Both the position numbers and the translations under genes were made by a program. A stretch of DNA of 10,407 bases, taken from positions 1-10,407 of IMG/VR virus record IMGVR_UViG_2695420809_000010; one strand, written 5' to 3'. The stretch comes from a virus (taxonomy: Duplodnaviria; Heunggongvirae; Uroviricota; Caudoviricetes). A model generated the notes under the pieces. The model was not told where the DNA came from. It saw nothing but the letters and a program-made list of their open reading frames with translations, and ran no database searches. This document shows, piece after piece, positions 1-10,407 of the stretch (positions within the stretch are counted from its first letter, which is position 1; each line of letters begins with the position of its first letter).

Positions 1-273
1 CTCACGACGCGCCAGAAAATTGTTTCGTTCTGGCTGGGAGTGGCTTTCACGGAATGCCGCCATCCACACGGTTGCAGCACGACGGTATAAGCCCCTGGAC
101 TCCAGTTCTTCCGCCTGGCGGGTCAGGCACAAAATCACACGGGGATCGTTAGTGCCGACATAGAAATTGCGCACAGGTCTGGTTTCTCGAACTGGTTGTG
201 GTTCCGGTTCCTGCGCTCTCTCAGTCAGGCGCGGGAAATGTCTGCGTGTATCTCCTTCACAACGGTGAGCCAC
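1..273 (-). CDS. Possible 5' part of a minus-strand CDS running off the window start; product unknown
   Basis: The minus-strand frame is stop-free from 351 down to position 1 (117 codons). In-frame candidate starts are GTG 273..271, GTG 174..172 and ATG 63..61. It is absent from the ORF track because it leaves the window. It overlaps the + ORF 198..383 and a 57-codon minus ORF 398..225, so the true coding frame is unresolved. Confidence 0.3.
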   Translation of the reverse strand, partial: MAHRCEGDTRRHFPRLTERAQEPEPQPVRETRPVRNFYVGTNDPRVILCLTRQAEELESRGLYRRAATVWMAAFRESHSQPERNNFLARRE

Positions 274-413
274 ACGCCCACTCTGACGTAACTTGCTTGC
301 TGACTGCAGAACGCGCTGCCGTGAGTAACCTGCAAAAGCATCCGCAATGTCTCAGGAAGTACATCCCGGATGGGCTTCAATGAATTTCTGAACTTCATTC
401 AAAAGACTCATGA

Positions 414-1232
414 TCACCCCCTGAATCCTGCCGGGATCTGGCTGTAGTCCACGTTGTCGTAACTGGCTTTGAAGTACGGGTCCTCGCGTCTGGCTGCAGA
501 TACCGCAGGAACTTCCCAGGATTCTTCGAAATGACGATCTGGACCAAAGAACGTGACAGCCTGTTTCACAAATTGTGTGCCGCTATTGCCCATCGCAGAT
601 ACCCAGCCCGCGTAGCGTTTCACACCTTCCAGCATGGTTTCGGGGTTTACCCCCTCGTTCAAACGGGCTTTCCAGGCTTTGAAGGCTGCAGATTTTGAAT
701 TGCCACCAGCACGTTTGGGATATGCCAGCCATGCCTGCTCAAACTCCGGAGAGTATTCCGGTCGGTTTGAACGAACTCGCACGGACTCATCAACTGATGC
801 ACCAACAGCTATTGGTTCATTGACTGGTTCTTTGACTGGTTCAAAAGAGTGACTGGTTCTGGGTGAATCTCCTGCACTACCCCCTGGTGCAACTCCTGCA
901 CTACCTGGTGAATTTGCTGCACCAGATAGTGAATTATTTGCACTACCCCCTAGTGAATCTCCTGCACCATCCAGATGAAGGAGATAGATATTACTTGAGT
1001 TACCTTTTTCACCTTTCCGGGTGACTTTTTTTACCAGCCCGGAATCACAAAGGGCCGCAATATGATTCATCACAGAACGTTTGCTAATCTCGCACTGGTC
1101 AGCAATATGCTGGTAGCTGGGCCAGCACTCACCCTGATCGCTGGCATTATCAGCCAGCTTGATCAGAACCAGTTTTCGCAATGGATTACCCACTCGAATT
1201 TTCATCGCTTTAACCATCAGCTCCATACTCAT
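414..1232 (-). CDS. Phage replication initiation protein (O-like / DUF1376-type): N-terminal winged-HTH, low-complexity Gly/Ser/Ala linker, C-terminal DnaT-like domain
   Basis: 272-aa ORF. N-terminus (LVLIKLADNASDQGECWPSYQHIADQCEISKRSVMNHIAALCDSGLV) looks like the wHTH of phage replication initiators; C-terminus (EFEQAWLAYPKRAGGNSKSAAFKAWKARL) resembles the DnaT-like domain. Start ATG overlaps the upstream stop (ATGA at 1229..1232). Last gene of the Cro-side operon, the expected position for an O-like gene. Confidence 0.7.
   Translation of the reverse strand: MSMELMVKAMKIRVGNPLRKLVLIKLADNASDQGECWPSYQHIADQCEISKRSVMNHIAALCDSGLVKKVTRKGEKGNSSNIYLLHLDGAGDSLGGSANNSLSGAANSPGSAGVAPGGSAGDSPRTSHSFEPVKEPVNEPIAVGASVDESVRVRSNRPEYSPEFEQAWLAYPKRAGGNSKSAAFKAWKARLNEGVNPETMLEGVKRYAGWVSAMGNSGTQFVKQAVTFFGPDRHFEESWEVPAVSAARREDPYFKASYDNVDYSQIPAGFRG
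821..970. repeat. Direct-repeat cluster inside the replication gene linker; candidate origin iterons
   Basis: Three copies of tgactggttc (821..830, 833..842, 850..859), then degenerate ~22-bp repeats built on ctgcactacc(ccc)tRgtg (872..889, 896..910, 938..955) and gtgaatctcctgcac twice (863..877, 953..967). This is the inter-domain linker, where lambda places its origin within O. Confidence 0.4.
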
Positions 1233-1465
1233 GCTGCACCTCCGAGATGCTTCATGTTTTTTCCGGAGCGAAAGGCTATAAGCGGCATACTGACGCGGTA
1301 ATTACGGCCCAGCGGTTCACAAACCACCTTCTGACATTCACGGTCAACCAGGCTAACACGTAGAACATGCCCTGCAGGCGTGGTGTACCACTGCCCAACT
1401 GTAGGAATTGATGTTTTTTTACGCTGAAGCAAACGGCAAATATTGAGGATCAACGGATTAAGCAT
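1229..1465 (-). CDS. Hypothetical protein, 78 aa, three Cys; translationally coupled early-operon gene
   Basis: ATG 1465..1463 overlaps the end of the upstream ORF (stop 1460..1458) and its stop overlaps the start of the replication gene. No family recognised. Confidence 0.5.
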   Translation of the reverse strand: MLNPLILNICRLLQRKKTSIPTVGQWYTTPAGHVLRVSLVDRECQKVVCEPLGRNYRVSMPLIAFRSGKNMKHLGGAA

Positions 1466-2294
1466 GACGATGCCCTCCGCTGATATTCAGGAGACGGTGA
1501 ATATGAAAATTAGCCTTATCCGCCAAACGGATACGTTCAGCCTGCAAGTTAAGAAGGGTTTCTACCAGAACCTGATGCGCCTGCGGATCCGAAAGAGTTA
1601 CCTTGCGCAGAGCACGTAGTGCAGTTGTTACATAACTGAGTTTATGTAAGTCTTCATCATTCAGACGAGTGAGGGCTGGGACAGTAGCCATGATGGCAGC
1701 CTCCGATAACAGTGAATTACCTTCACCACCGGAAACGCCAATTTCGCTGGTGGTGAACTGAACGGGGTTGGCGTAACCGGCGTTATCGGAAACCGGCGCA
1801 CCTTTCAGTGCCCCCGTCCAGCCCACCATAATTTGGGTGTGCGCAGACGCAGACGATAAAAAAGACGCTGGCGCGTCATATATCGCCGATAACATTTCCA
1901 GGACGCCAATCCCGGCACCCGCTTTATAAGGTGCCTGAACAGTGTAACGTCCCGGAATGGCAGAATCAATGTGCTGGTGGTCCTTCACACTCAACAAAAT
2001 CACGCCTGAATTTCCACAAAGGACTAAAGCACTCATGCGGGTAGTCTTTGCGAAGATAGATAACGCGCTGTGTTTCTGGCTCCCAACGAATAACATGAAC
2101 ATAAAGTCCTCTTCCGTCACGAAACCAGCGGTTAAGTTCCTGCACAACTCGCCCCCCACAGTCAGGTAAAGTTCTCTGTGGTTACTTACAGCCAGGAGAT
2201 TTGGTAATCTGCATTCATGCCGTAACAACAGGTGTTCAGCGACGCTGACCACCAGCTGTTGCGACAAACGGTTATTTGCCGTTAAACTGTTCAT
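1458..2294 (-). CDS. Hypothetical protein, 278 aa, function unknown
   Basis: Long ORF with ATGA start/stop overlap to the CII-like gene (2291..2294) and an 8-nt overlap with the next gene. Contains glycine-rich segments (CGNSGVILL, YKAGAGIGVLEML) that might mark a nucleotide-binding fold, but I cannot assign a family. Confidence 0.65.
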   Translation of the reverse strand: MNSLTANNRLSQQLVVSVAEHLLLRHECRLPNLLAVSNHRELYLTVGGELCRNLTAGFVTEEDFMFMLFVGSQKHSALSIFAKTTRMSALVLCGNSGVILLSVKDHQHIDSAIPGRYTVQAPYKAGAGIGVLEMLSAIYDAPASFLSSASAHTQIMVGWTGALKGAPVSDNAGYANPVQFTTSEIGVSGGEGNSLLSEAAIMATVPALTRLNDEDLHKLSYVTTALRALRKVTLSDPQAHQVLVETLLNLQAERIRLADKANFHIHRLLNISGGHRHA

Positions 2295-2842
2295 GCGTTA
2301 GTTTCTCCACAGACACAAAACGCCACGACGCCCGGAGCTGCACACTCGCGGGCGTCACTCTTTTCTGGAGCGCAAAAGATTTTGTAGACCAGTGCTGCAT
2401 GCTCCTGGAGCTTCGAAATTGACAGATACAACTCATCATTAATTGCTGTCTGCTCGTGTGGCTCCACTACCCCATCTTCGATTGCCGAACGAATCTGCTT
2501 TGAGTAACTCCCGATCTGTTCGATGACTTCCAGCAGGCGCTGGTTTATATCGGCGTTCTCTACTTCCTCAATTTCAGGAAGCGATACAAACACCCCACCA
2601 GCAGACTGTGCGACAGCATCCGCAATGTAGTGAGTGCCAGCCGCGCGCTGTAAAATCATTGCCCATCCCAGCGGGAAAATCTGATCGCCATCTGCACGAA
2701 GGCGGTTGAATAAAGCGTTCTCTGTTACATCTAGCCACTCAGCAGCTTCAGCGTACCCCCCCGGCAACGCCGCGATAGTTTTTCTGACAGCTTTCACGTA
2801 CCACTCAGGCTGTTTTTCCACTTTCCAGTGATGCTTACCCAC
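2291..2842 (-). CDS. Phage regulatory protein, CII (CP76) / YdaT-like, 183 aa
   Basis: Sits directly after the Cro-like gene. GTG start at 2842 is preceded by a strong SD (AGGAGG, 6-nt spacer). The central region (AEWLDVTENALFNRLRADGDQIFPLGWAMILQRAAG) resembles, from memory, the phage-186 CII / YdaT family; I could not verify this by search. Confidence 0.55.
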   Translation of the reverse strand: MGKHHWKVEKQPEWYVKAVRKTIAALPGGYAEAAEWLDVTENALFNRLRADGDQIFPLGWAMILQRAAGTHYIADAVAQSAGGVFVSLPEIEEVENADINQRLLEVIEQIGSYSKQIRSAIEDGVVEPHEQTAINDELYLSISKLQEHAALVYKIFCAPEKSDARECAAPGVVAFCVCGETNA

Positions 2843-3095
2843 GGCTTACCTCCTGTTCCTGTGGTTTAAACCCATTCTGGTTTTGGCTAGATTGAAAACG
2901 TGCCGGATAAAGAATCTGCATTTCGCTGATTTCACCCTTAAAAAAATTGGCCAGACGTTCTGCAAGATCGATAGATGGAATTTGTTCCAGTCTTTCAATA
3001 CGACTCAGCGTCGCTGGATTGACCTGAACGCCAGCAGCAACATGCTGCAAAGTAAATCCGTGCGCCTTACGCACATTCCGTAATGGTGATTGCAT
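2835..3095 (-). CDS. cro: Cro-like XRE-family HTH regulator, 86 aa
   Basis: HTH motif (GFTLQHVAAGVQVNPATLSRIERLEQIPSIDLAERLA). Divergent from the CI-like repressor across a 97-bp operator region. SD GGAGG lies 4 nt before the ATG at 3095. Confidence 0.8.
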   Translation of the reverse strand: MQSPLRNVRKAHGFTLQHVAAGVQVNPATLSRIERLEQIPSIDLAERLANFFKGEISEMQILYPARFQSSQNQNGFKPQEQEVSRG

Positions 3096-3192
3096 ATGAC
3101 CTCCACATATTGCGTGATGAGCATATTATTTCACGCAAATATTTTGCGCAAGTTGATTTGCTTAACGCGCAATAAAGAAATGTAATAAACGC
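3096..3192. promoter_or_regulatory. Divergent promoter/operator region of the immunity switch (OR-like: PR toward cro, PRM-like toward cI)
   Basis: Minus-strand promoter: -35 TTGCGC (plus 3146..3151), 17-bp spacer, -10 TAATAT (plus 3123..3128). Plus-strand candidate: -35 TTGCTT (3158..3163), 17-bp spacer, -10 TGTAAT (3181..3186), placing the start at or near the cI ATG. Five CGCAA/TTGCG half-sites in 97 bp, including the inverted pair TTGCGTGA (3110..3117) / TCACGCAA (3131..3138), the palindrome TTGCGCAA (3144..3151), and TTGCTTAACGCGCAA (3158..3172). Confidence 0.6.
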
Positions 3193-3885
3193 ATGAACAT
3201 AGGAAATCGAGTCAGACAACTTCGCCAGGCGAAGAACATGAAAATCGCCGATCTCGCTGAAGCAATAGGAGTGGATGCGGCGAATATCTCACGCCTGGAA
3301 ACAGGTAAGCAGAAACAATTCACTGAACAAGCCCTGAGTAATATTGCCAGGAGCTTAGGTGTTGATATTGCTGATCTCTTTACCTCAGACTTCAAAAGTA
3401 ATACTGTATGTAAAAACAGTATTAGTGAGGATGTTGCGCAGGTGAAGGATGTATTCCGTATTGAAATGCTGGATGTCAGTGCCAGTGCGGGAAATGGCCT
3501 TATCCAGGGCGGTGATGTCATTGATGTGATTCATGCCATTGAATACAGAACTGATAATGCTGTATCGATGTTTGGCGGACGACCAGCCAATCACATTAAA
3601 GTTATCAACGTTCGTGGGGACAGTATGTGTCCAACCATTGAGCCAGGAGATCTCATCTTCGTTGATGTCAGTATCAATCAGTTTGATGGAGATGGTATCT
3701 ATGTATTTGGTTTTGATGATAAAATTTATGTCAAACGACTGCAAATGATACCTGACAAACTACTGGTGATTTCTGATAACCAGATTTACCGTGAATGGGG
3801 AATTACCAGCGAAAATGAACACCGGTTTATGGTCTTTGGAAAGGTCTTAATCAGCCAGTCACAAACCCTTAAGCGACACAATTAA
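3193..3885 (+). CDS. cI: CI-type prophage repressor: N-terminal XRE HTH plus C-terminal S24 (LexA-like) autopeptidase domain, 230 aa
   Basis: N-terminal HTH (IADLAEAIGVDAANISRLETGKQ). C-terminal domain carries the Ser motif (RGDSMCPTIEPGDLIFVD) and a downstream Lys (YVKRLQ), as in LexA/CI. No SD precedes the ATG, consistent with a leaderless maintenance transcript. Confidence 0.9.
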   Translation: MNIGNRVRQLRQAKNMKIADLAEAIGVDAANISRLETGKQKQFTEQALSNIARSLGVDIADLFTSDFKSNTVCKNSISEDVAQVKDVFRIEMLDVSASAGNGLIQGGDVIDVIHAIEYRTDNAVSMFGGRPANHIKVINVRGDSMCPTIEPGDLIFVDVSINQFDGDGIYVFGFDDKIYVKRLQMIPDKLLVISDNQIYREWGITSENEHRFMVFGKVLISQSQTLKRHN

Positions 3886-3905
3886 CCCTTACCTCCTCAT
3901 CAATT

Positions 3906-3927
3906 AGCCACCCGAAGGTGGCTTTTC
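3906..3927 (+). terminator. Intrinsic terminator downstream of cI
   Basis: Stem AGCCACC (3906..3912), loop CGAA, stem GGTGGCT (3917..3923), followed by TTTTC; 20 nt after the cI stop. Confidence 0.75.
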
Positions 3928-3940
3928 ATTACCCATCAAA

Positions 3941-3992
3941 TTGCATATCTCGCAACAAAACACTTGCACAATGCGCAATTTCATTTTATCTT
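3941..3992 (+). promoter_or_regulatory. OL/PL-like operator-promoter region for the plus-strand early operon
   Basis: Two 15-bp sites of the form TTGC-N7-GCAA (TTGCATATCTCGCAA at 3941..3955; TTGCACAATGCGCAA at 3964..3978), matching the OR site at 3158..3172. Possible -35 TTGCAC (3964..3969) with a weak -10 near 3987..3992. Exact promoter elements are uncertain. Confidence 0.45.
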
Positions 3993-4403
3993 TCTTTCCA
4001 GACCAACAAACAAGGTACTAACAAAATTTGGTTGTAACACGGCGTATGGCACATGCGTCGTTAGCGGTCTGGGGACGTTAAAGGGGACAATCCACTCCTT
4101 GCTCGGGCAAACAAACCAGGTAGCCGGAATGTGCAAGTCAATGATGATGCTGATAAGACGCCTAACCAGCGTGGCGATCCGGTTTGACGCCTGGGAAGAG
4201 ACCAGGGGGCAACGATGAGGGCATTTATGGAGCCGCGACAAAGTGTGGTGCCGTAACTGGCTAAGTGCTCTCAGCGTTGTGGTAATCCGCGAAATGGCGC
4301 GGCGGTAAGTATGGCGGGGTTACTCTTTCCCCGTTGAGGACACCGGATTGTCAGGTTGACCATACGCCTGAGTGACAACCCCACCACAACAGCCACTGCT
4401 TTG

Positions 4404-4450
4404 GCGGTACCAGTTTGTACACTTGCTTCCGGCTGGTACCGCTCTTTTTA
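4404..4450 (+). terminator. Terminator-like hairpin within the leader upstream of the yfdP-like gene
   Basis: Perfect 10-bp stem GCGGTACCAG (4404..4413) / CTGGTACCGC (4433..4442), 19-nt loop, followed by TCTTTTTA (4443..4450). Confidence 0.45.
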
Positions 4451-4538
4451 CAAAACAGAGAAGAGCATCACCGGACGACGGGCTCATAACCCAATCCATC
4501 CGGGCGGCTGCCACCGCAGGTGTTCTTCTCTGTTTTGT
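4450..4538 (+). repeat. 15-bp perfect inverted repeat with 59-nt spacer in the leader RNA
   Basis: ACAAAACAGAGAAGA (4450..4464) is the exact reverse complement of TCTTCTCTGTTTTGT (4524..4538). It lies immediately after the terminator-like hairpin and about 50 nt before the yfdP-like start. Confidence 0.6.
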
Positions 4539-4586
4539 GGAGAAACCAACCGACCTTGCAGGGTCGATATGATGAGGAGCAGCAAA

Positions 4587-4949
4587 ATGGCTAGCGAACG
4601 CAGTACTGATGTGCAGGCATTTATCGGGGAGCTGGACGGCGGCGTATTTGAAACCAAAATCGGCGCAGTTCTCAGTGAAGTCGCTTCCGGTGTGATGAAC
4701 ACGAAAACCAAAGGGAAGGTCTCACTCAACCTGGAAATCGAACCATTTGATGAGAACCGTGTGAAAATCAAACACAAACTCTCATATGTTCGCCCGACTA
4801 ACCGCGGGAAAATTTCCGAAGAAGACACCACCGAAACGCCGATGTATGTCAATCGCGGTGGTCGCCTGACTATTCTGCAGGAAGACCAGGGACAATTACT
4901 GACTCTTGCCGGTGAACCTGACGGAAAACTCCGCGCAGCAGGTCATTAA
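4587..4949 (+). CDS. yfdP: YfdP-like prophage early protein, 120 aa, function unknown
   Basis: Internal ATG at 4587 preceded by SD GAGGAG (4574..4579, 7-nt spacer). The track's longer ORF from 4356 runs through the structured leader and has no SD. The 120-aa length and the MASERSTDVQAF N-terminus match my recollection of K-12 YfdP. Confidence 0.7.
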   Translation: MASERSTDVQAFIGELDGGVFETKIGAVLSEVASGVMNTKTKGKVSLNLEIEPFDENRVKIKHKLSYVRPTNRGKISEEDTTETPMYVNRGGRLTILQEDQGQLLTLAGEPDGKLRAAGH

Positions 4950-5014
4950 TATCGTTTTTAATAAACTGATTATTTCTCTCATCACTGAATATTTTTATAT
5001 AGTGAGGACTTATT

Positions 5015-5839
5015 ATGTCTCAGAACTTAGACTCATCCGCAATTAATCAAATCCATGCCCTTATTTCTGCTCAGGGTGTTAATGAAATTATCAGTAAGAT
5101 TGGTGCCGATGCTGTGGCATTGCCTGAGAATTTCCGCATTCATGATCTGGAAAAATTTAATTTAAATCGCTTCCGTTTCCGAGGTGCGCTTTCCACTGCA
5201 AGCATCGATGACTTTACCCGTTATTCTAAAGATCTTGCAGATGAAGGCACCCGCTGCTTTATCGATGCCGATAATATGCGAGCCGTCAGTGTGCTTAACT
5301 TGGGTACTATTGATGAACCAGGTCACGCAGATAACACCGCCACTCTCAAACTGAAAAAGACAGCACCGTTCTCTGCCCTGTTGTCTGTTAACGGCGAGCG
5401 TAACTCCCAGAAGTCACTGGCAGAATGGATTGAAGACTGGGCCGACTACCTTGTGGGCTTTGATGCTAATGGTGACGCTATTCAGGCAACAAAAGCGGCT
5501 GCGGCAGTCCGTAAAATTACGATTGAAGCAAACCAGACCGCTGATTTTGAAGATAATGACTTCAGCGGCAAACGCTCCCTGATGGAGTCTGTCGAAGCGA
5601 AGACCAAAGACATTATGCCAGTGGCATTTGAATTTAAATGCGTTCCGTTTGAAGGCCTGAAAGAACGTCCGTTTAAATTACGCCTCAGCATTATCACTGG
5701 CGATCGTCCTGTACTGGTTCTGCGCATTATTCAGCTGGAAGCAGTCCAGGAAGAAATGGCTAACGAATTTCGTGATCTGCTTGTTGAGAAATTCAAGGAC
5801 AGCAAAGTAGAAACCTTTATTGGTACTTTCACCGCCTGA
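5015..5839 (+). CDS. yfdQ: YfdQ-like DUF2303-family prophage protein, 274 aa
   Basis: 274-aa ORF with SD GTGAGGA 5 nt before the ATG. Length and sequence agree with my recollection of CPS-53 YfdQ, and it is followed by the yfdR-like gene as in K-12. Confidence 0.8.
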
Positions 5840-5851
5840 TTTCATTACTGC

Positions 5852-5873
5852 AAATGCCCCTGCGGGGGCATTT
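5852..5873 (+). terminator. Intergenic hairpin between the yfdQ-like and yfdR-like genes; weak or partial terminator, or an mRNA-stabilising structure
   Basis: AAATGCCCC (5852..5860), loop TGCG, GGGGCATTT (5865..5873): a perfect 9-bp stem. There is no clean U-tract beyond the stem, so termination is probably partial. Confidence 0.4.
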
Positions 5874-5966
5874 ATGGAAACGTAATTGACTCAATAATCG
5901 CCGGATGGTGAGTGCTTCCTTTTACCATAATCCAGCGCGGTGCAGCGCATATACGTGGAGAACAAA

Positions 5967-6503
5967 ATGTCATTTATTAAAACTTTTTCCGGGAAGCATT
6001 TTTATTATGACAAGATAAATAAAGATGACATCGTTATTAACGATATCGCGGTTTCCCTTTCAAATATCTGTCGCTTTGCCGGTCATCTTTCGCACTTCTA
6101 CAGCGTCGCCCAACATGCGGTTCTTTGCAGCCAGCTGGTGCCGCAGGAATTTGCTTTTGAAGCGTTAATGCATGATGCAACAGAAGCGTATTGCCAGGAC
6201 ATTCCCGCACCACTGAAACGCCTTCTTCCTGACTATAAACGGATGGAAGAAAAAATAGACGCCGTAATCCGTGAGAAATACGGGTTACCCCCAGTTATGA
6301 GTACACCCGTGAAATATGCCGATCTCATCATGCTGGCAACCGAACGCCGCGATCTCGGGCTTGATGATGGCTCTTTCTGGCCTGTACTGGAAGGCATCCC
6401 GGCAACAGAGATGTTCAACGTGATTCCACTGGCACCGGGCCATGCCTACGGGATGTTTATGGAACGTTTTAACGATTTATCGGAGTTACGCAAATGCGCA
6501 TGA
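5967..6503 (+). CDS. yfdR: HD-domain phosphohydrolase, YfdR-like 5'-deoxynucleotidase, 178 aa
   Basis: ATG at 5967 with SD GGAG (5957..5960); the track's ORF begins at an upstream GTG (5940). HD-domain signature spacing is present (H..H then D in AGHLSHFYSVAQHAVLCSQ...LMHDATEAYCQDIP). Confidence 0.85.
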   Translation: MSFIKTFSGKHFYYDKINKDDIVINDIAVSLSNICRFAGHLSHFYSVAQHAVLCSQLVPQEFAFEALMHDATEAYCQDIPAPLKRLLPDYKRMEEKIDAVIREKYGLPPVMSTPVKYADLIMLATERRDLGLDDGSFWPVLEGIPATEMFNVIPLAPGHAYGMFMERFNDLSELRKCA

Positions 6504-6856
6504 ATGTTCTCGAAATGGAAGGGTTTCTTCGCGGGAAATGTGTACCGCGAGATCTGAAAGTGAACGAAACAAATGCTGAGTACCTGGTACATAAATTCGA
6601 CGCGCTTGAAGCTAAATGTGCGGCACTGGAAAACAAAATAATACCAGTGTCAGCTGAACTGCCACCAGCAAATGAAAGTGTTCTGTTATTTGATGCTAAC
6701 GGAGAAGGCTGGCTGATTGGCTGGCGTTCTCTCTGGTACACCTGGGGACAAAAAGAAACCGGAGAATGGCAGTGGACATTTCAGGTCGGGGACCTTGAAA
6801 ACGTCAATATCACTCACTGGGCAGTAATGCCGAAAGCACCGGAGGCGCGAGCATAA
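6494..6856 (+). CDS. yfdS: YfdS-like prophage protein with a DUF551-like C-terminus, 120 aa
   Basis: Start overlaps the yfdR-like stop; SD GGAG 9 nt upstream. C-terminal region (GEGWLIGW...ITHWAVMPKAPE) is paralogous to the C-terminus of the next gene. Confidence 0.75.
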   Translation: MRMNVLEMEGFLRGKCVPRDLKVNETNAEYLVHKFDALEAKCAALENKIIPVSAELPPANESVLLFDANGEGWLIGWRSLWYTWGQKETGEWQWTFQVGDLENVNITHWAVMPKAPEARA

Positions 6857-7635
6857 TGATCACGTTTACCGACAAAGAACTGATTAAAGAAATCAAAGAG
6901 CGCATAGGAAGCCTGGATGTGAGAGACAATATTGAACGCCGCGCTTATGAAATCGCACTGGCATCGCTGGAAGAGGATCCGGTGGCATGGCTGCATTCAG
7001 ACAATGGCTTAGGTATTCCGGCAATAACCAGGAGTAAAAACATTGCTGACAGTTGGTTATCAAAGGGCTGGTATGTTCAGCCGCTATATATAGCCAAGCC
7101 AGTACCAGTGGCGCCAGATGCTCGTCCGTCTTTAAATAATGGCATAGTCGGTTTTGATGAAGGCTGGAACGCCCGCCGCACCGCCATGATTCATGGTGCC
7201 GTACCTGCAAGCCAGGCTTACAAGTTGCCACAAACGCAGTTTAAACAGGTTGCTGACCTCTACGAAATGCAATTTGATGACGGTCGCACTTGTACCTTTC
7301 ACACTGATGCGCAAAAGGCTGTGCAATGGCTTCAGGCGTGCGACGGAAACAGGGTTCAGGAATACGTTAAGCTGGAACGATTGCAGAACGCACTGTCTGG
7401 CAACTCTCCGGTAATTCCGGATGGTTGGATAAGCTGTAGTGAGCGAATGCCGAACGATAAACAGTATGTTTGGTGTTGGGGTAAGTCTTACGGCTGGACT
7501 GAGTGCGATACCTTCGAAGGGTATTACGATTGGTCGAGAAACAAATGGTGGGCAGTTACTGACGATGGGGAAGAACCGGCATCGAAAGTAACCCACTGGA
7601 TACCGCTACCGGAGCCGCCGCAGGAGGTGAAGTAA
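6856..7635 (+). CDS. yfdT: YfdT-like protein with C-terminal DUF551 domain, 259 aa
   Basis: TAATG overlap with the upstream stop; SD GGAGG 8 nt upstream. C-terminal W-rich domain ends in THWIPLPEPP, typical of DUF551 phage proteins. The N-terminus (MITFTDKELIKEIKERIG) matches my recollection of K-12 YfdT. Confidence 0.75.
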   Translation: MITFTDKELIKEIKERIGSLDVRDNIERRAYEIALASLEEDPVAWLHSDNGLGIPAITRSKNIADSWLSKGWYVQPLYIAKPVPVAPDARPSLNNGIVGFDEGWNARRTAMIHGAVPASQAYKLPQTQFKQVADLYEMQFDDGRTCTFHTDAQKAVQWLQACDGNRVQEYVKLERLQNALSGNSPVIPDGWISCSERMPNDKQYVWCWGKSYGWTECDTFEGYYDWSRNKWWAVTDDGEEPASKVTHWIPLPEPPQEVK

Positions 7636-7829
7636 TGAACAACTTAATGACAACAAAACAAGTTGCCGAATTCTGTGGCGTTTCAGTATCGACAGTTCTT
7701 CGCTGGAACAGCGTAAACAGGAGAACTGGCCAGAAATACAGGCCTGACTTTCCAGATCCTGATATTAAATCCTGCCCAAATAAATGGGCATCACGCAAGA
7801 TATACAGGTTTGCTGGAGTTATTGAGTAA
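7635..7829 (+). CDS. Excisionase-family (Xis/AlpA-like, HTH_17) DNA-binding protein, 64 aa
   Basis: TAATG overlap with the upstream gene; strong SD AGGAGGTGA. The motif TKQVAEFCGVSVSTVLRW is the typical excisionase/AlpA winged-helix. It is the last gene of the plus-strand early operon, the usual position for xis. Confidence 0.75.
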   Translation: MNNLMTTKQVAEFCGVSVSTVLRWNSVNRRTGQKYRPDFPDPDIKSCPNKWASRKIYRFAGVIE

Positions 7830-8050
7830 CGTGTATTATCTCAGATGGGAGCTGACACATCTATGGCACAGAGCCAAACCTAATCTGACAGCTTGCGCTA
7901 TGCTGTGAGTTCAACGGGTCGATGCAACGCTATCCTTGAACAACGGGGAACAGCTCAGTCAGCTGGTGCGCCCGGCGGCGATTCTTGATGTACGCGCTGC
8001 AAGATACTGTCACTTTAGACAATCTGCAAAACATATCACGACCGACTTTT

Positions 8051-8138
8051 CACAATAAGTGCGCACTATTGTGAATTGAATTCTGGAAGTATCGCCTAGT
8101 TATATAACGTTAACTGATTGTTTTTTCTAGCGTAGAAT
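8051..8138 (+). promoter_or_regulatory. Putative promoter with an upstream near-perfect palindrome (operator candidate) for the small orphan gene
   Basis: 23-bp palindrome CACAATAAGTGCGCACTATTGTG (8051..8073), imperfect by one extra A, with a perfectly palindromic AGTGCGCACT core. Candidate promoters: -35 TTGAAT (8076..8081) with -10 TATATA (8101..8106), or -35 TTAACT (8110..8115), 17-bp spacer, -10 TAGAAT (8133..8138). Confidence 0.4.
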
Positions 8139-8151
8139 GAGGGATTTATCG

Positions 8152-8340
8152 ATGAAAGAAGAACTGATTGAACTATACAAAGACTCCTTACTTTTAGGAA
8201 AATATATTGAGCTGGAACATATTGCTAATGGCATGTTACCAGGCCTATTTCCTGGAAAGGAACTAGAAGAACTTTCTGACAAGGAGTTAATTGCATTAAC
8301 TAAAGCCGTAATTACAGGTATGACCTCGTGGCTGTGCTAA
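8152..8340 (+). CDS. Hypothetical small acidic protein, 62 aa, in the AT-rich islet
   Basis: ATG at 8152 preceded by SD GAGGG (8139..8143, 8-nt spacer); the track's ATG at 8137 lacks an SD. A palindromic terminator follows 15 nt after the stop. No family recognised. Hand-counted GC is about 37%, lower than flanking phage genes. Confidence 0.5.
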   Translation: MKEELIELYKDSLLLGKYIELEHIANGMLPGLFPGKELEELSDKELIALTKAVITGMTSWLC

Positions 8341-8354
8341 TACTGATTAAAACT

Positions 8355-8370
8355 GGCGGCATATGCCGCC
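8355..8370. terminator. Perfect 16-bp palindrome between the convergent orphan genes; candidate bidirectional terminator
   Basis: GGCGGCATATGCCGCC is identical on both strands: a 6-bp GC stem with AUAU loop. The minus-strand transcript continues into AGUUUUAAU; the plus-strand tail is less U-rich. Confidence 0.55.
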
Positions 8371-8444
8371 ATAATACAACTAACTCGAACAGCCTGCCGT
8401 AGGCGTTATCTTCAATGGTCAGTGGTTATAGCAATACCCTCTCG

Positions 8445-8996
8445 TCATGAATATCGGAGATTTAGTCGGGAATACAGCCTTTCTATCTCATCGACAACTT
8501 TGCTAAACTCTTTGGCTAATTTGGGTGGCAATTCAATATGCCCATGCTGGTTCGCTAGGTCACCAGTATTTAATATTTCAAAACGTTTTCTAGCAAGATA
8601 CAACCATCTGATCACATCAGGATCATTTACAAGAGCCTGGCGGATATTGTCTACCTGCTGCCCCCTATAAATCCGCGTACTATCAGGTAGAAATAAAATA
8701 TTTTCCGTACGATAAGGATATGGCGTGATATCCAGCATTTCTCCAGCATCATTCTCCCAAATACAGTGGAACTCAGCTTCAATATAAACTCCCGGTACCT
8801 GCCAGATAGCCCAACCGTAAACAGCTCTTCCGCCATTCTGTTCAATCACCATTTCAACATTCGAAAAGCAGTCCATAACTTCCGCTCCCGAGAAAGGTTC
8901 ATTTTTAATCAATACAGCATGAGCATCAGGAACAACTTGCAGACAAAAATTCAGGGTTTCAGGCGTATCTAACTGTGCGGGTATTGGATGGTGCAT
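8445..8996 (-). CDS. Hypothetical protein, 183 aa, function unknown; orphan gene in the integrase-proximal islet
   Basis: ATG at 8996 with SD AAGGA 5 nt upstream. Lies 188 nt downstream of the integrase stop on the same strand and converges on the 62-aa gene. AT-rich relative to the phage core. No recognisable domain. Confidence 0.6.
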   Translation of the reverse strand: MHHPIPAQLDTPETLNFCLQVVPDAHAVLIKNEPFSGAEVMDCFSNVEMVIEQNGGRAVYGWAIWQVPGVYIEAEFHCIWENDAGEMLDITPYPYRTENILFLPDSTRIYRGQQVDNIRQALVNDPDVIRWLYLARKRFEILNTGDLANQHGHIELPPKLAKEFSKVVDEIERLYSRLNLRYS

Positions 8997-9183
8997 AGCA
9001 TTCCTTACATTAGAGCTAAATGGGAGGTTTGTAGTAAAGGACTTGCAGATAATGTCATCGCTGGCGAAGTTTTGGTTTCATTGACTGCTTATCTGTGTCT
9101 GCTCACTTATCAATCAATAGTTTTACTGCAATCTGGCGACACCGTTTGTATAAGAATATCCGTTCCTAGCTCAGAGCGAACTA

Positions 9184-10407
9184 TCAGTTGGTGTCTGAGT
9201 TAGTACAAGTAACGATCGATTCAACTCTCTCCCACCATGCCAGGTAAGCTTTACGCTGTTCTTCTAGATAATCGCTCTTATCATAAACTTGCCATACCCC
9301 TGGCAGTTTATGACCTAGCATTATTTCTGCAATATGCGGCGCAGTAAGATCAGAAAAGTTTGTTCGTGCTGTTCGCCTCAAATCATGAAGAGACCAATGA
9401 GGGAATTGATACCCCAAACGCCGCCATGCGTACTGCATTAAATTGTAAGGCAGCGACTGCAATGATGTCCGACCAACGGGTTCCCTGCTTCCTTCCTTAG
9501 TAAAAAGCATATCGGAACCATTGTTCATAGAAATAGCGTACTTTATAAGCTCTTCAACCGGTTCAATAATGGGCCGCTTTAGCGGTTCGCCTGTTATGTC
9601 CCCTGTCTTATGTCGTTCAGGTGGTACAGTCCATACCTTATTTATGAAATCAAAATCACCCACCCTAGCAGTAATTAGCTCCGAACTACGGCAACCAAAA
9701 TGCAGTAATAGTTTAATGAAGGCCCGGTATTTGGGAACCATTCTAGAGCCATCGATCGCAGCATAAAGAATTTTAATTTCATCGTGTGTCAGAAACCGTT
9801 TCTTCTGACCTTTACGGATATCCATATCTTTACCCGTGATATCCGACAGCGGGCGAGTTTCAATAAGCTTTCTCTTATACGCCCAGACATGGGCCTGCTT
9901 TGCGTTAATTAGCAATCGGTCTGCTATTGCTGGAGTCTTAGTGCTAAGAGGCTCCAGGACTTCTAACCAATCATGCAATGTAGCTGCATCGTGAGGGATA
10001 TTCCCGATTTTAGAGAACAGGTGCAACTCAAACGAGCGGAGTATCTGTTCAGAACCCTTTTTATTTTTTACACAATATGCTTCATACCAGGCACGGATCA
10101 CAGACTCTACCGTCATGGCTTCAGTAGCTTTTCGTTTTTCAGCCTGCTTGACCAATCGTGGATTACGGTTTGACTCGAGTTCACCACGGAGACGGATAAC
10201 TTCTTCTCTGGCCTCTTTTAATCCAGTTGCCGGGTAAGTTCCGATATCAAGACGCTCACCTTTCCCTGCCCATTGATAACGATATTGGAACACTACGCGA
10301 CCTTTCGGTGATACTCTGACAGACAGACCATCACGATCGGATTTAACCAAAACCTTATCACGTTCCTTTCCAACGACTGAACGCAACCACGCATCAGACA
10401 GCGCCAT
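9184..10407 (-). CDS. int: Tyrosine site-specific integrase, P4-type (DUF4102 arm-binding N-terminus plus catalytic domain), 407 aa, complete
   Basis: N-terminus (LSVRVSPKGRVVFQYRYQWAGKGERLDIGTYPATGLKEAREE) has the DUF4102 pattern. Catalytic residues are in the expected order: R (HFGCRSSEL), H-x-x-R (HDLRRTART), and Tyr in LGHKLPGVWQVYDKSDY. The start ATG is at 10405..10407, the window edge. Confidence 0.95.
   Translation of the reverse strand: MALSDAWLRSVVGKERDKVLVKSDRDGLSVRVSPKGRVVFQYRYQWAGKGERLDIGTYPATGLKEAREEVIRLRGELESNRNPRLVKQAEKRKATEAMTVESVIRAWYEAYCVKNKKGSEQILRSFELHLFSKIGNIPHDAATLHDWLEVLEPLSTKTPAIADRLLINAKQAHVWAYKRKLIETRPLSDITGKDMDIRKGQKKRFLTHDEIKILYAAIDGSRMVPKYRAFIKLLLHFGCRSSELITARVGDFDFINKVWTVPPERHKTGDITGEPLKRPIIEPVEELIKYAISMNNGSDMLFTKEGSREPVGRTSLQSLPYNLMQYAWRRLGYQFPHWSLHDLRRTARTNFSDLTAPHIAEIMLGHKLPGVWQVYDKSDYLEEQRKAYLAWWERVESIVTCTNSDTN

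Follow-up and report, generated by a model that had tools for sequence, protein, structure and literature searches.

What fills the interval between the excisionase-like gene (xis) and the integrase gene (int) of a lambdoid prophage, and what might it do for the bacterium that carries it? We address this question for a window of 10,407 nucleotides (nt) of viral DNA (IMG/VR record IMGVR_UViG_2695420809_000010, positions 1-10,407). The window covers the early-left arm of a lambdoid Escherichia coli prophage together with its integration module, and shows 100% identity to strain TUM12357, in which the prophage integrase adjoins yjjG. Over positions 7635-10407, the order is xis-like gene, a 1.35-kb islet (7830-9183), and integrase. 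Two convergent open reading frames (ORFs) lie inside the islet, ORF62 (8152-8340, plus strand) and ORF183 (8445-8996, minus strand), named here for their lengths in amino acids (aa); a first-pass annotation, made from the sequence alone, had already picked out this convergent pair. We find that the islet is an integrase-proximal defence hotspot. We further propose, with a probability of approximately 0.55, that the hotspot serves as a cargo bay holding two independent morons, with ORF183 the likely thiol-type effector that protects the lysogen.

The xis-int interval is a slot for variable defence cargo

The flanks of the slot are fixed, while its contents are swapped between lineages. DNA similarity to a sister prophage ends at position 7891 and restarts at 9181, 3 nt short of the int stop codon. 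The left boundary consists of xis and approximately 60 nt, and the right boundary is the int stop codon itself. In 630 records, the islet is matched over its first 62 nt but not beyond them. Rather than being conserved core genes, the two ORFs are rare at this position: the whole islet is present in four of 5,426 complete E. coli genomes, whereas the DUF551-xis left flank (7400-7891) is covered to at least 80% in approximately 450 genomes. The islet copies in these four strains, which come from different hosts, are 99.3-100% conserved.

We compared a sample of 12 prophages that share the left flank and have their integrase next to yjjG. Nine cargo types occupy the xis-int interval of these prophages, and five of the nine are recognised defence systems. 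Three of the five are known from RefSeq annotation: an AIPR abortive-infection protein (two prophages), Dsr1 (two prophages), and an anti-phage dCTP deaminase (one prophage). The other two, each in a single prophage, are a dGTPase split into two ORFs (PADLOC E = 3e-44 and 7e-43) and a CHAT protein that corresponds to BovA of Borvo (PADLOC E = 4e-241). The remaining types are the ORF62-ORF183 islet, found in one of the 12, and three uncharacterised proteins of 239 aa (two prophages; locus L025, 5213-5932, minus strand), 331 aa (one prophage; L024, 5304-6299, plus strand), and 428 aa (one prophage; L097, 5425-6711, plus strand). These three proteins have no match in Pfam or PADLOC, and their place in the slot makes them just as good candidates for novel defence genes. 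The dGTPase cargo, from strain UTAK-13 (L028, 5182-6407), is made up of a 121-aa HD part and a 268-aa HD_assoc part, and is probably a frameshifted or decaying copy.

Most of the identifiable cargos of the slot are single-gene anti-phage defence systems. Because the cargo differs between sister prophages and five of its types are recognised defence systems, we conclude that the islet is an integrase-proximal defence hotspot of CPS-53/e14-like lambdoid E. coli prophages at yjjG. The accessory slot with variable cargo that the first-pass annotation had placed beside the integrase is therefore borne out by comparison with related prophages at the same junction.

ORF183 is a predicted thiol enzyme

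ORF183 is a predicted enzyme with an N-terminal alpha/beta domain (residues 1-125) and a helical C-terminal part. Its AlphaFold model has a predicted local distance difference test (pLDDT) score of 93. In this model, Cys43 lies at the N-terminus of a helix (residues 43-54), and His77 (strand 71-81) and Asp89 (strand 87-89) lie on the next two strands. This order would fit a transglutaminase/papain-like thiol enzyme, in which a conserved cysteine at a helix N-terminus is followed by histidine and aspartate on successive strands. Across 242 diverse family members, the three residues are conserved at 98% (Cys43), 100% (His77), and 93% (Asp89), as are Glu73 (96%), Glu75 (97%), and Asp105 (96%).

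A possible papain-like arrangement was proposed prior to the fold search, which returned faint similarity to transglutaminase/papain-like thiol enzymes, interleaved with glyoxalase-fold proteins, and no match to a solved structure. The enzymes with which we compare ORF183 are the Cys-His-Asp transglutaminase/papain-like proteins TglA (9crn), PeiW (8jx4), LapG (4fgo), and SseI (4g29), together with arylamine N-acetyltransferase (2ija). Judged from the predicted model, ORF183 is probably a divergent thiol enzyme (a protease, a deamidase, or an acyl/amido-transferase) that acts on protein.

Sequence searches with ORF183 gave no match in Pfam, NCBIfam, PADLOC, or the sequences of the PDB. The Pfam search returned only noise (E >= 0.07), with no match to Transglut_core, to any Peptidase_C family, or of the NLPC_P60 type. 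No family in PADLOC-DB v2 was matched at E <= 1, and a profile of the ORF183 family found nothing among PDB sequences under E = 0.38. The sole PHROGs match for either islet protein is that of ORF183 to the function-unknown phrog_37148 (E = 3e-26). The first-pass view that both ORFs belong to no family thus holds for Pfam, NCBIfam, PADLOC, and PDB, but not for PHROGs in the case of ORF183. A literature search found no paper that mentions the protein accessions or this PHROG.

ORF183 belongs to a large family on mobile elements

A profile search of 1.84 billion representatives recovered 3,157 members of the ORF183 family at E <= 0.001 and 2,206 at E <= 1e-10, counted as clusters at 50% identity. 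These relatives are found in Proteobacteria, Acidobacteria, Verrucomicrobia, and Clostridia, as well as in Nanoarchaeota bins. Approximately one third of the relatives (83 of 242) have a SEC-C zinc motif (PF02810, CxC...C(C/H)) at the C-terminus, which the ORF183 of the window lacks. RefSeq labels the plasmid-borne relatives “SEC-C domain-containing protein”.

Relatives of ORF183 occupy diverse mobile contexts. They are found in an integrative and conjugative element (ICE)-like region of Dickeya, in a P2-like prophage of Pseudomonas, and at a Klebsiella prophage end (L004, 4817-6552), where a homologue with 68% identity stands after a Hin/Gin-type invertase and next to int. The Klebsiella group comprises the invertase, a 184-aa unknown protein, and the ORF183 homologue, all on the same strand, between a tail-fibre/depolymerase gene and the integrase. 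The 184-aa neighbour was considered as an ORF183 paralogue and rejected, as the two are unrelated. SEC-C-bearing relatives lie on a Mesorhizobium plasmid beside a DarT-NADAR pair (L013, 6908-7952) and on a Xanthomonas plasmid near an AAA-ATPase/UvrD-helicase pair (L095, 1910-4565). Both plasmid regions are accessory and rich in conflict genes. Altogether, relatives were found on 53 plasmids, of which 26 are conjugative.

In viral contigs, ORF183 relatives are placed in a moron-like manner. Of 32 IMG/VR contigs with a relative, 19 have it no more than 5 kb from an end, where 13.2 would be expected (P ~0.02). The nearest neighbours in these contigs are repressors, integrases, umuC, and lysis genes. 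A search of 50,697 sequenced phage isolates gave a single weak match. Clustering of the neighbours over 70 loci revealed no conserved partner for ORF183; those neighbours that are lineage-specific carry no informative domains.

ORF62 travels alone between small variable islets

ORF62 is an acidic protein of 62 aa, predicted to be helical, with a Shine-Dalgarno sequence (GAGGGA) 7 nt upstream of its gene. Alignment of homologues favours the ATG at 8152 as the start over the ATG at 8137, because every relative is 62 aa long. The homologues form 29 clusters, all of approximately 62 aa and all from Enterobacterales. Searches with ORF62 in Pfam, PHROGs, NCBIfam, PADLOC, and PDB gave no match; neither its 62-aa nor its 67-aa form matched any family in PADLOC-DB v2 at E <= 1, and no match was found in the 50,697 phage isolates.

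ORF62 homologues always occur as a solitary gene in small variable islets, in approximately seven other contexts. These include the ogr-att end of a P2-like Citrobacter prophage; the E. coli kdgR-yobH interval, 5' of a gene for a 495-aa protein (L016, 6700-8187); an Enterobacter islet, 5' of a gene for a 583-aa protein (L021, 6329-8080); an Erwinia site between livF and ugpQ; a Serratia site beside the candidate defence ATPase PDC-S06; and a site beside an Hcp-Tlde1 effector module. The 495-aa and 583-aa proteins have no Pfam or PADLOC match. Relatedness among the large genes 3' of ORF62 homologues was also considered and rejected: they are unrelated to each other and to the slot cargos. From these surroundings, ORF62 appears to keep company with conflict genes. 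We infer that it is a solitary moron, and that its small, acidic, helical product acts by binding or modulation and not by catalysis.

The DNA homology of the other ORF62 loci to the window runs from 10 nt 5' of the ATG to the stop codon. Three of these loci share approximately 90 nt of upstream sequence with one another and not with the window. Because homology begins so close to the ATG and the other loci share a different upstream region, the region upstream of ORF62 in the window, palindrome included (see below), is probably a local replacement. This speaks against the idea, implicit in the first-pass annotation, that the palindrome-bearing upstream region belongs to the ORF62 module.

Base composition and coding status of the islet

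The first-pass annotation described the islet as visibly poorer in G+C than the phage core. The difference is present but modest: G+C content is 42.4% in the islet and 48.3% in positions 1-7829 of the window. ORF62 has 37.0%, as an earlier count by hand had indicated, and ORF183 has 42.2%; the segment 7830-8136 has 45.9%. ORF62 alone is clearly distinct, since xis (42.1%) and int (45.0%) are low as well.

Ratios of nonsynonymous to synonymous substitution rates (dN/dS) against homologues from other genera are 0.07-0.08 for ORF62 and 0.23 for ORF183. Because these ratios are low, both ORFs appear to be real genes under purifying selection. A 40-aa ORF (7936-8058, plus strand) has no Pfam match, and DNA related to it was absent from the fetched loci except the window's own genome. 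It overlaps an insertion sequence (IS) remnant described below and has no relatives, so we rejected it as a gene, which it probably is not.

The left flank of the slot is conserved and ends with the xis-like gene (7635-7829, plus strand), which encodes a 64-aa helix-turn-helix protein and matches the excisionase family phrog_1553 (E = 1.3e-35); in Pfam, HTH_17 scores under its cut-off. The right flank, at the prophage end beside yjjG, is the gene for a 407-aa tyrosine integrase (9184-10407, minus strand) with the Pfam domains Phage_integrase, Arm-DNA-bind_3, and Phage_int_M. Most sister prophages (L002, L023-L027, L097-L100, at approximately 4736-4990) have no RefSeq coding sequence for the xis-like gene. 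Their DNA is 94-97% identical to xis of the window, and the coding sequence is annotated only in TUM12357 and UTAK-13.

Hairpins and promoter-like sites around the two genes

Two inverted repeats with arms of at least 9 bp are present in the islet, which was seen in 1% of shuffles. The first, TGGCGGCATATGCCGCCA at 8354-8371, is a perfect 18-bp palindrome between the convergent genes, just as the first-pass annotation had read it. As RNA, it forms a hairpin of -14.1 kcal/mol (z = -5.1), with seven pairs, six of them G-C, and a 4-nt loop. A U-tract (GUUUUAAUCA) follows on the minus strand, and the plus strand has none. A G+C-rich hairpin with a U-tract, the pattern of an intrinsic terminator, is therefore found in the ORF183/int direction only. 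Because the U-tract is confined to the minus strand, the hairpin reads better as a putative terminator for the int/ORF183 direction than for ORF62. Thus, the proposed palindromic terminator is upheld for one direction of transcription and not for the other. A second, small hairpin, GCCTGCCGTAGGC at 8392-8404, is terminator-like on the plus strand.

The second inverted repeat, TTCACAATA-N9-TATTGTGAA at 8049-8075, has perfect 9-bp arms and abuts a -35-like TTGAAT at 8076. Its stability as RNA is not unusual (z = -1.3), and it is missing upstream of ORF62 homologues at other loci. We regard it as a possible protein-binding site. Promoter-like hexamers on the plus strand 5' of ORF62 (8076-8138) comprise this TTGAAT, read by eye, and TTAACT-17-TAGAAT at 8110-8138. 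The first-pass annotation had combined these signals into a dedicated ORF62 promoter with a palindromic operator. The palindrome is real and the hexamers are present, but the former is not conserved elsewhere and the latter do not exceed chance (see below); the promoter and “operator” of ORF62 thus remain putative. On the other side of the islet, the spacer at 8997-9183 (minus strand), bounded by the int stop and the start of ORF183, is islet-specific and holds the Shine-Dalgarno sequence of ORF183, AAGGA, at 9002-9006 in plus-strand coordinates. ORF183 may be transcribed by read-through from int.

A junction element at the left boundary, and an insertion scar

A conserved junction element of approximately 80 nt follows xis in every cargo variant aligned (e.g., L002, ~5000-5085). 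Its 5' part, at 7830-7891 (plus strand) in the window, is the last sequence common to all cargo variants and forms the left limit of variability. Within it lies an imperfect inverted repeat, GGCACAGAG...CTCTGTGCC. In locus L016, the kdgR-yobH islet, the ORF62 homologue is flanked by two diverged copies of the element (~5835-5915 and ~6335-6415), the second of which precedes the gene for the 495-aa protein. Because of these flanking copies, its sequence suggests a cassette boundary or recombination anchor. It may alternatively be a terminator. Rfam yielded no match in the islet or the junction element, and covariation (RNAalifold) gave weak support.

In the window, an IS30-like remnant stands in place of the 3' half of the junction element. 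This 48-nt sequence (7902-7949, plus strand) resembles an IS30-family terminal repeat and is identical at 43 of 48 nt (90%) to a sequence in locus L022. The L022 match ends 7 nt 5' of a frameshifted transposase gene with an HTH_38 domain, in ST131-like genomes. Terminal-repeat similarity abutting an IS30-type transposase is thus found, and the transposase itself is gone from the window. Similar 48-mers occur in approximately 530 complete E. coli genomes.

A proposed role for the islet and its alternatives

We propose that ORF183 would be expressed in the lysogen, driven by a weak promoter within 8997-9183 or by transcription that continues out of int, and that its transcript would end at the 8354-8371 hairpin. 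ORF183 would be the likely effector, in which a Cys43-His77-Asp89 triad on a divergent transglutaminase/papain-like core might cleave or modify a protein target. The most likely outcome would be a lysogen protected against other phages. ORF62 would be a separate acidic helical binder or modulator, travelling alone between small conflict-gene islets, that has gained a new upstream region with the 8049-8075 palindrome in the window. Taken on its own, the assignment of ORF183 to lysogen defence is tentative, and we rate it a little short of an even chance.

Several observations weigh against this proposal. No defence or anti-defence model in PADLOC matches ORF62 or ORF183. At 66 GTDB loci, the immediate neighbours of ORF183 relatives include housekeeping genes as well as defence or mobile-element genes, so that ORF183 is only mildly associated with defence outside the slot. 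Relatives on conjugative plasmids and in ICE-like regions lie near ArdC, DUF736, and DUF932 genes, a placement that fits counter-defence as well as defence. Promoter-like sites are not above chance, with three found against 4.1 expected from shuffles, and no minus-strand promoter-like site for ORF183 was found in the 8997-9183 spacer. In the predicted model, Glu73, Glu75, and His77 on one strand face, together with Asp105, could equally form a metal site.

The alternative that survives best is that ORF183 is a counter-defence or establishment factor, an enzyme that inactivates a host immune protein when the element enters a cell or is induced. The 53 plasmids with relatives, 26 of them conjugative, are consistent with such a role. 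So are rhizobial plasmid and ICE regions with RepC, DUF736, and DUF932-like genes, and ArdC is one immediate neighbour among the GTDB loci. Anti-defence islands in leading regions have reportedly been documented. Furthermore, one Acinetobacter plasmid relative belongs to an array of small unknown genes that all point the same way, and relatives in viral contigs neighbour repressor/cro and early genes. The slot itself argues otherwise, however: its identifiable alternates are all defence systems, and none is an anti-defence system. ORF183 is also oriented with int at the silent prophage end, outside any early lytic operon, and its near absence from the phage isolates would be unusual for a phage counter-defence gene. 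We therefore consider counter-defence unlikely, though a serious contender.

Could the islet instead hold accessory cargo unconnected with conflict, such as genes for stress tolerance, envelope or metabolic modification, or host regulation? The hotspot would then take up DNA of any kind. Four of the nine slot cargo types have no recognised function. Many ORF183 relatives stand beside housekeeping genes, such as those for aconitase, Obg, RNase E/G, or an FMN oxidoreductase, and the SEC-C tail of some relatives is also found on general cytoplasmic proteins (SecA, YecA, and YchJ). Nevertheless, all identifiable slot cargos are anti-phage, and the contexts of ORF62 repeatedly hold conflict genes (PDC-S06 and Hcp-Tlde1) and prophage ends. 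A patchy distribution combined with strong purifying selection would also be typical of conflict genes. This explanation is accordingly improbable.

A third explanation would join ORF62 and ORF183 into a single two-gene system, such as an enzyme toxin and its small inhibitor or antitoxin, coordinated by the convergent layout and the shared terminator. The genes are adjacent and converge on one hairpin; ORF62 is small and acidic, as are many protein inhibitors; and both genes are present in all four E. coli islet genomes and in three IMG/VR copies. Those copies, however, are a single islet with 99-100% identity, and thus a single event. Of 105 loci, 16 have an ORF62 relative and 78 an ORF183 relative, and the genome of the window alone has both; ORF183 is missing from the other 15 ORF62 loci, as is ORF62 from the other 77 ORF183 loci. 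Even closer ORF183 relatives (68-89% identity) occur without ORF62. The two distributions also differ, with ORF62 restricted to Enterobacterales and ORF183 relatives spread across many phyla. Because the genes co-occur only in the window's own genome, a toxin-antitoxin-like pairing is very unlikely. ORF62 and ORF183 appear to be independently mobile, unrelated morons, contrary to the functional unit that the first-pass annotation had implied.

Finally, it is barely credible that the islet is decaying, unexpressed debris of IS activity and recombination: an IS30-like end remnant does truncate the junction element at 7902-7949, the native ORF62 upstream region has been replaced, and no promoter has statistical support, but neither ORF is broken or shortened in comparison with any homologue, each has a good Shine-Dalgarno sequence and a low dN/dS, and four strains of different host origin share the islet at 99.3-100%.

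What the slot suggests about its cargo

The slot is a clean natural experiment, in which one pair of flanks surrounds no fewer than five known defence systems along with four cargos that are uncharacterised. Because the shared slot encloses known defence systems, the unknown cargos (ORF183, ORF62, and the 239-, 331-, and 428-aa proteins) are strong candidates for immune or counter-immune genes of a new kind. Among them, ORF183 has the greatest value: it is small and easily tested, its putative catalytic residues are obvious sites for mutation, and it stands for thousands of proteins that have no entry in Pfam, NCBIfam, or a defence database.

A bolder and rather doubtful extension is that ORF183 founds a new, widespread family of single-gene conflict enzymes, with over 3,000 clusters (at 50% identity) in many bacterial phyla, carried by prophages, ICEs, and plasmids. 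Its fold would have no close relative among solved structures, and its chemistry would be of the Cys-His-Asp type. In the members with SEC-C, the tail would hold the enzyme at the ribosome or at SecB-like partners. Such enzymes might modify a core factor of translation or secretion and so abort infection, or might disable an immune protein of the host, and ORF62 would be a second, independent anti-phage or anti-defence miniprotein. The islet as found holds no surprise in principle; what ORF183 provides is a concrete, readily tested representative of a very large unannotated family in an immune-gene slot.

Comparison with known systems

ORF183 invites comparison with the SEC-C proteins, namely the C-terminal tail of SecA, YecA, and YchJ. 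Approximately one third of the ORF183 family ends in the same CxC...C(C/H) zinc knuckle. The ORF183 of the window differs in lacking this tail, and its N-terminal domain shows no relation to the domains of SecA, YecA, or YchJ in the searches run.

The two genes resemble phage morons, accessory prophage genes with independent transcription such as lambda rexAB, lom, and bor. Like morons, they are compact single-gene units, each with its own Shine-Dalgarno sequence and a nearby terminator, placed between core genes; their G+C content is lower, and homology stops within approximately 10 nt of the coding sequence. A difference is that ORF62 is also found outside prophages, in small chromosomal islets.

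The slot as a whole belongs to a kind of hotspot that is already known, and the novelty lies in the cargo rather than the architecture. Our literature search found no paper describing this particular xis-int slot, which is no proof that none exists. E. coli defence systems are carried on mobile elements with variable defensive cargo (PMC10121019), and antiviral hotspots adjacent to the integrase are established in P4, P2, and other prophages (PMC9122126). At the P4 psu-int locus, the variable loci of P2, and the cI-int locus of Vibrio K139-like prophages (Rousset et al. 2022, PMC9122126), fixed genes likewise flank a slot beside the integrase. As in our prophages, one or a few cargo genes vary there among otherwise similar elements, and known single-gene defence systems are found together with many unknowns. 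The slot described here differs in residing in a lambdoid CPS-53/e14-like prophage at yjjG, and in being flanked by xis with its ~80-nt junction element on one side and by int on the other.

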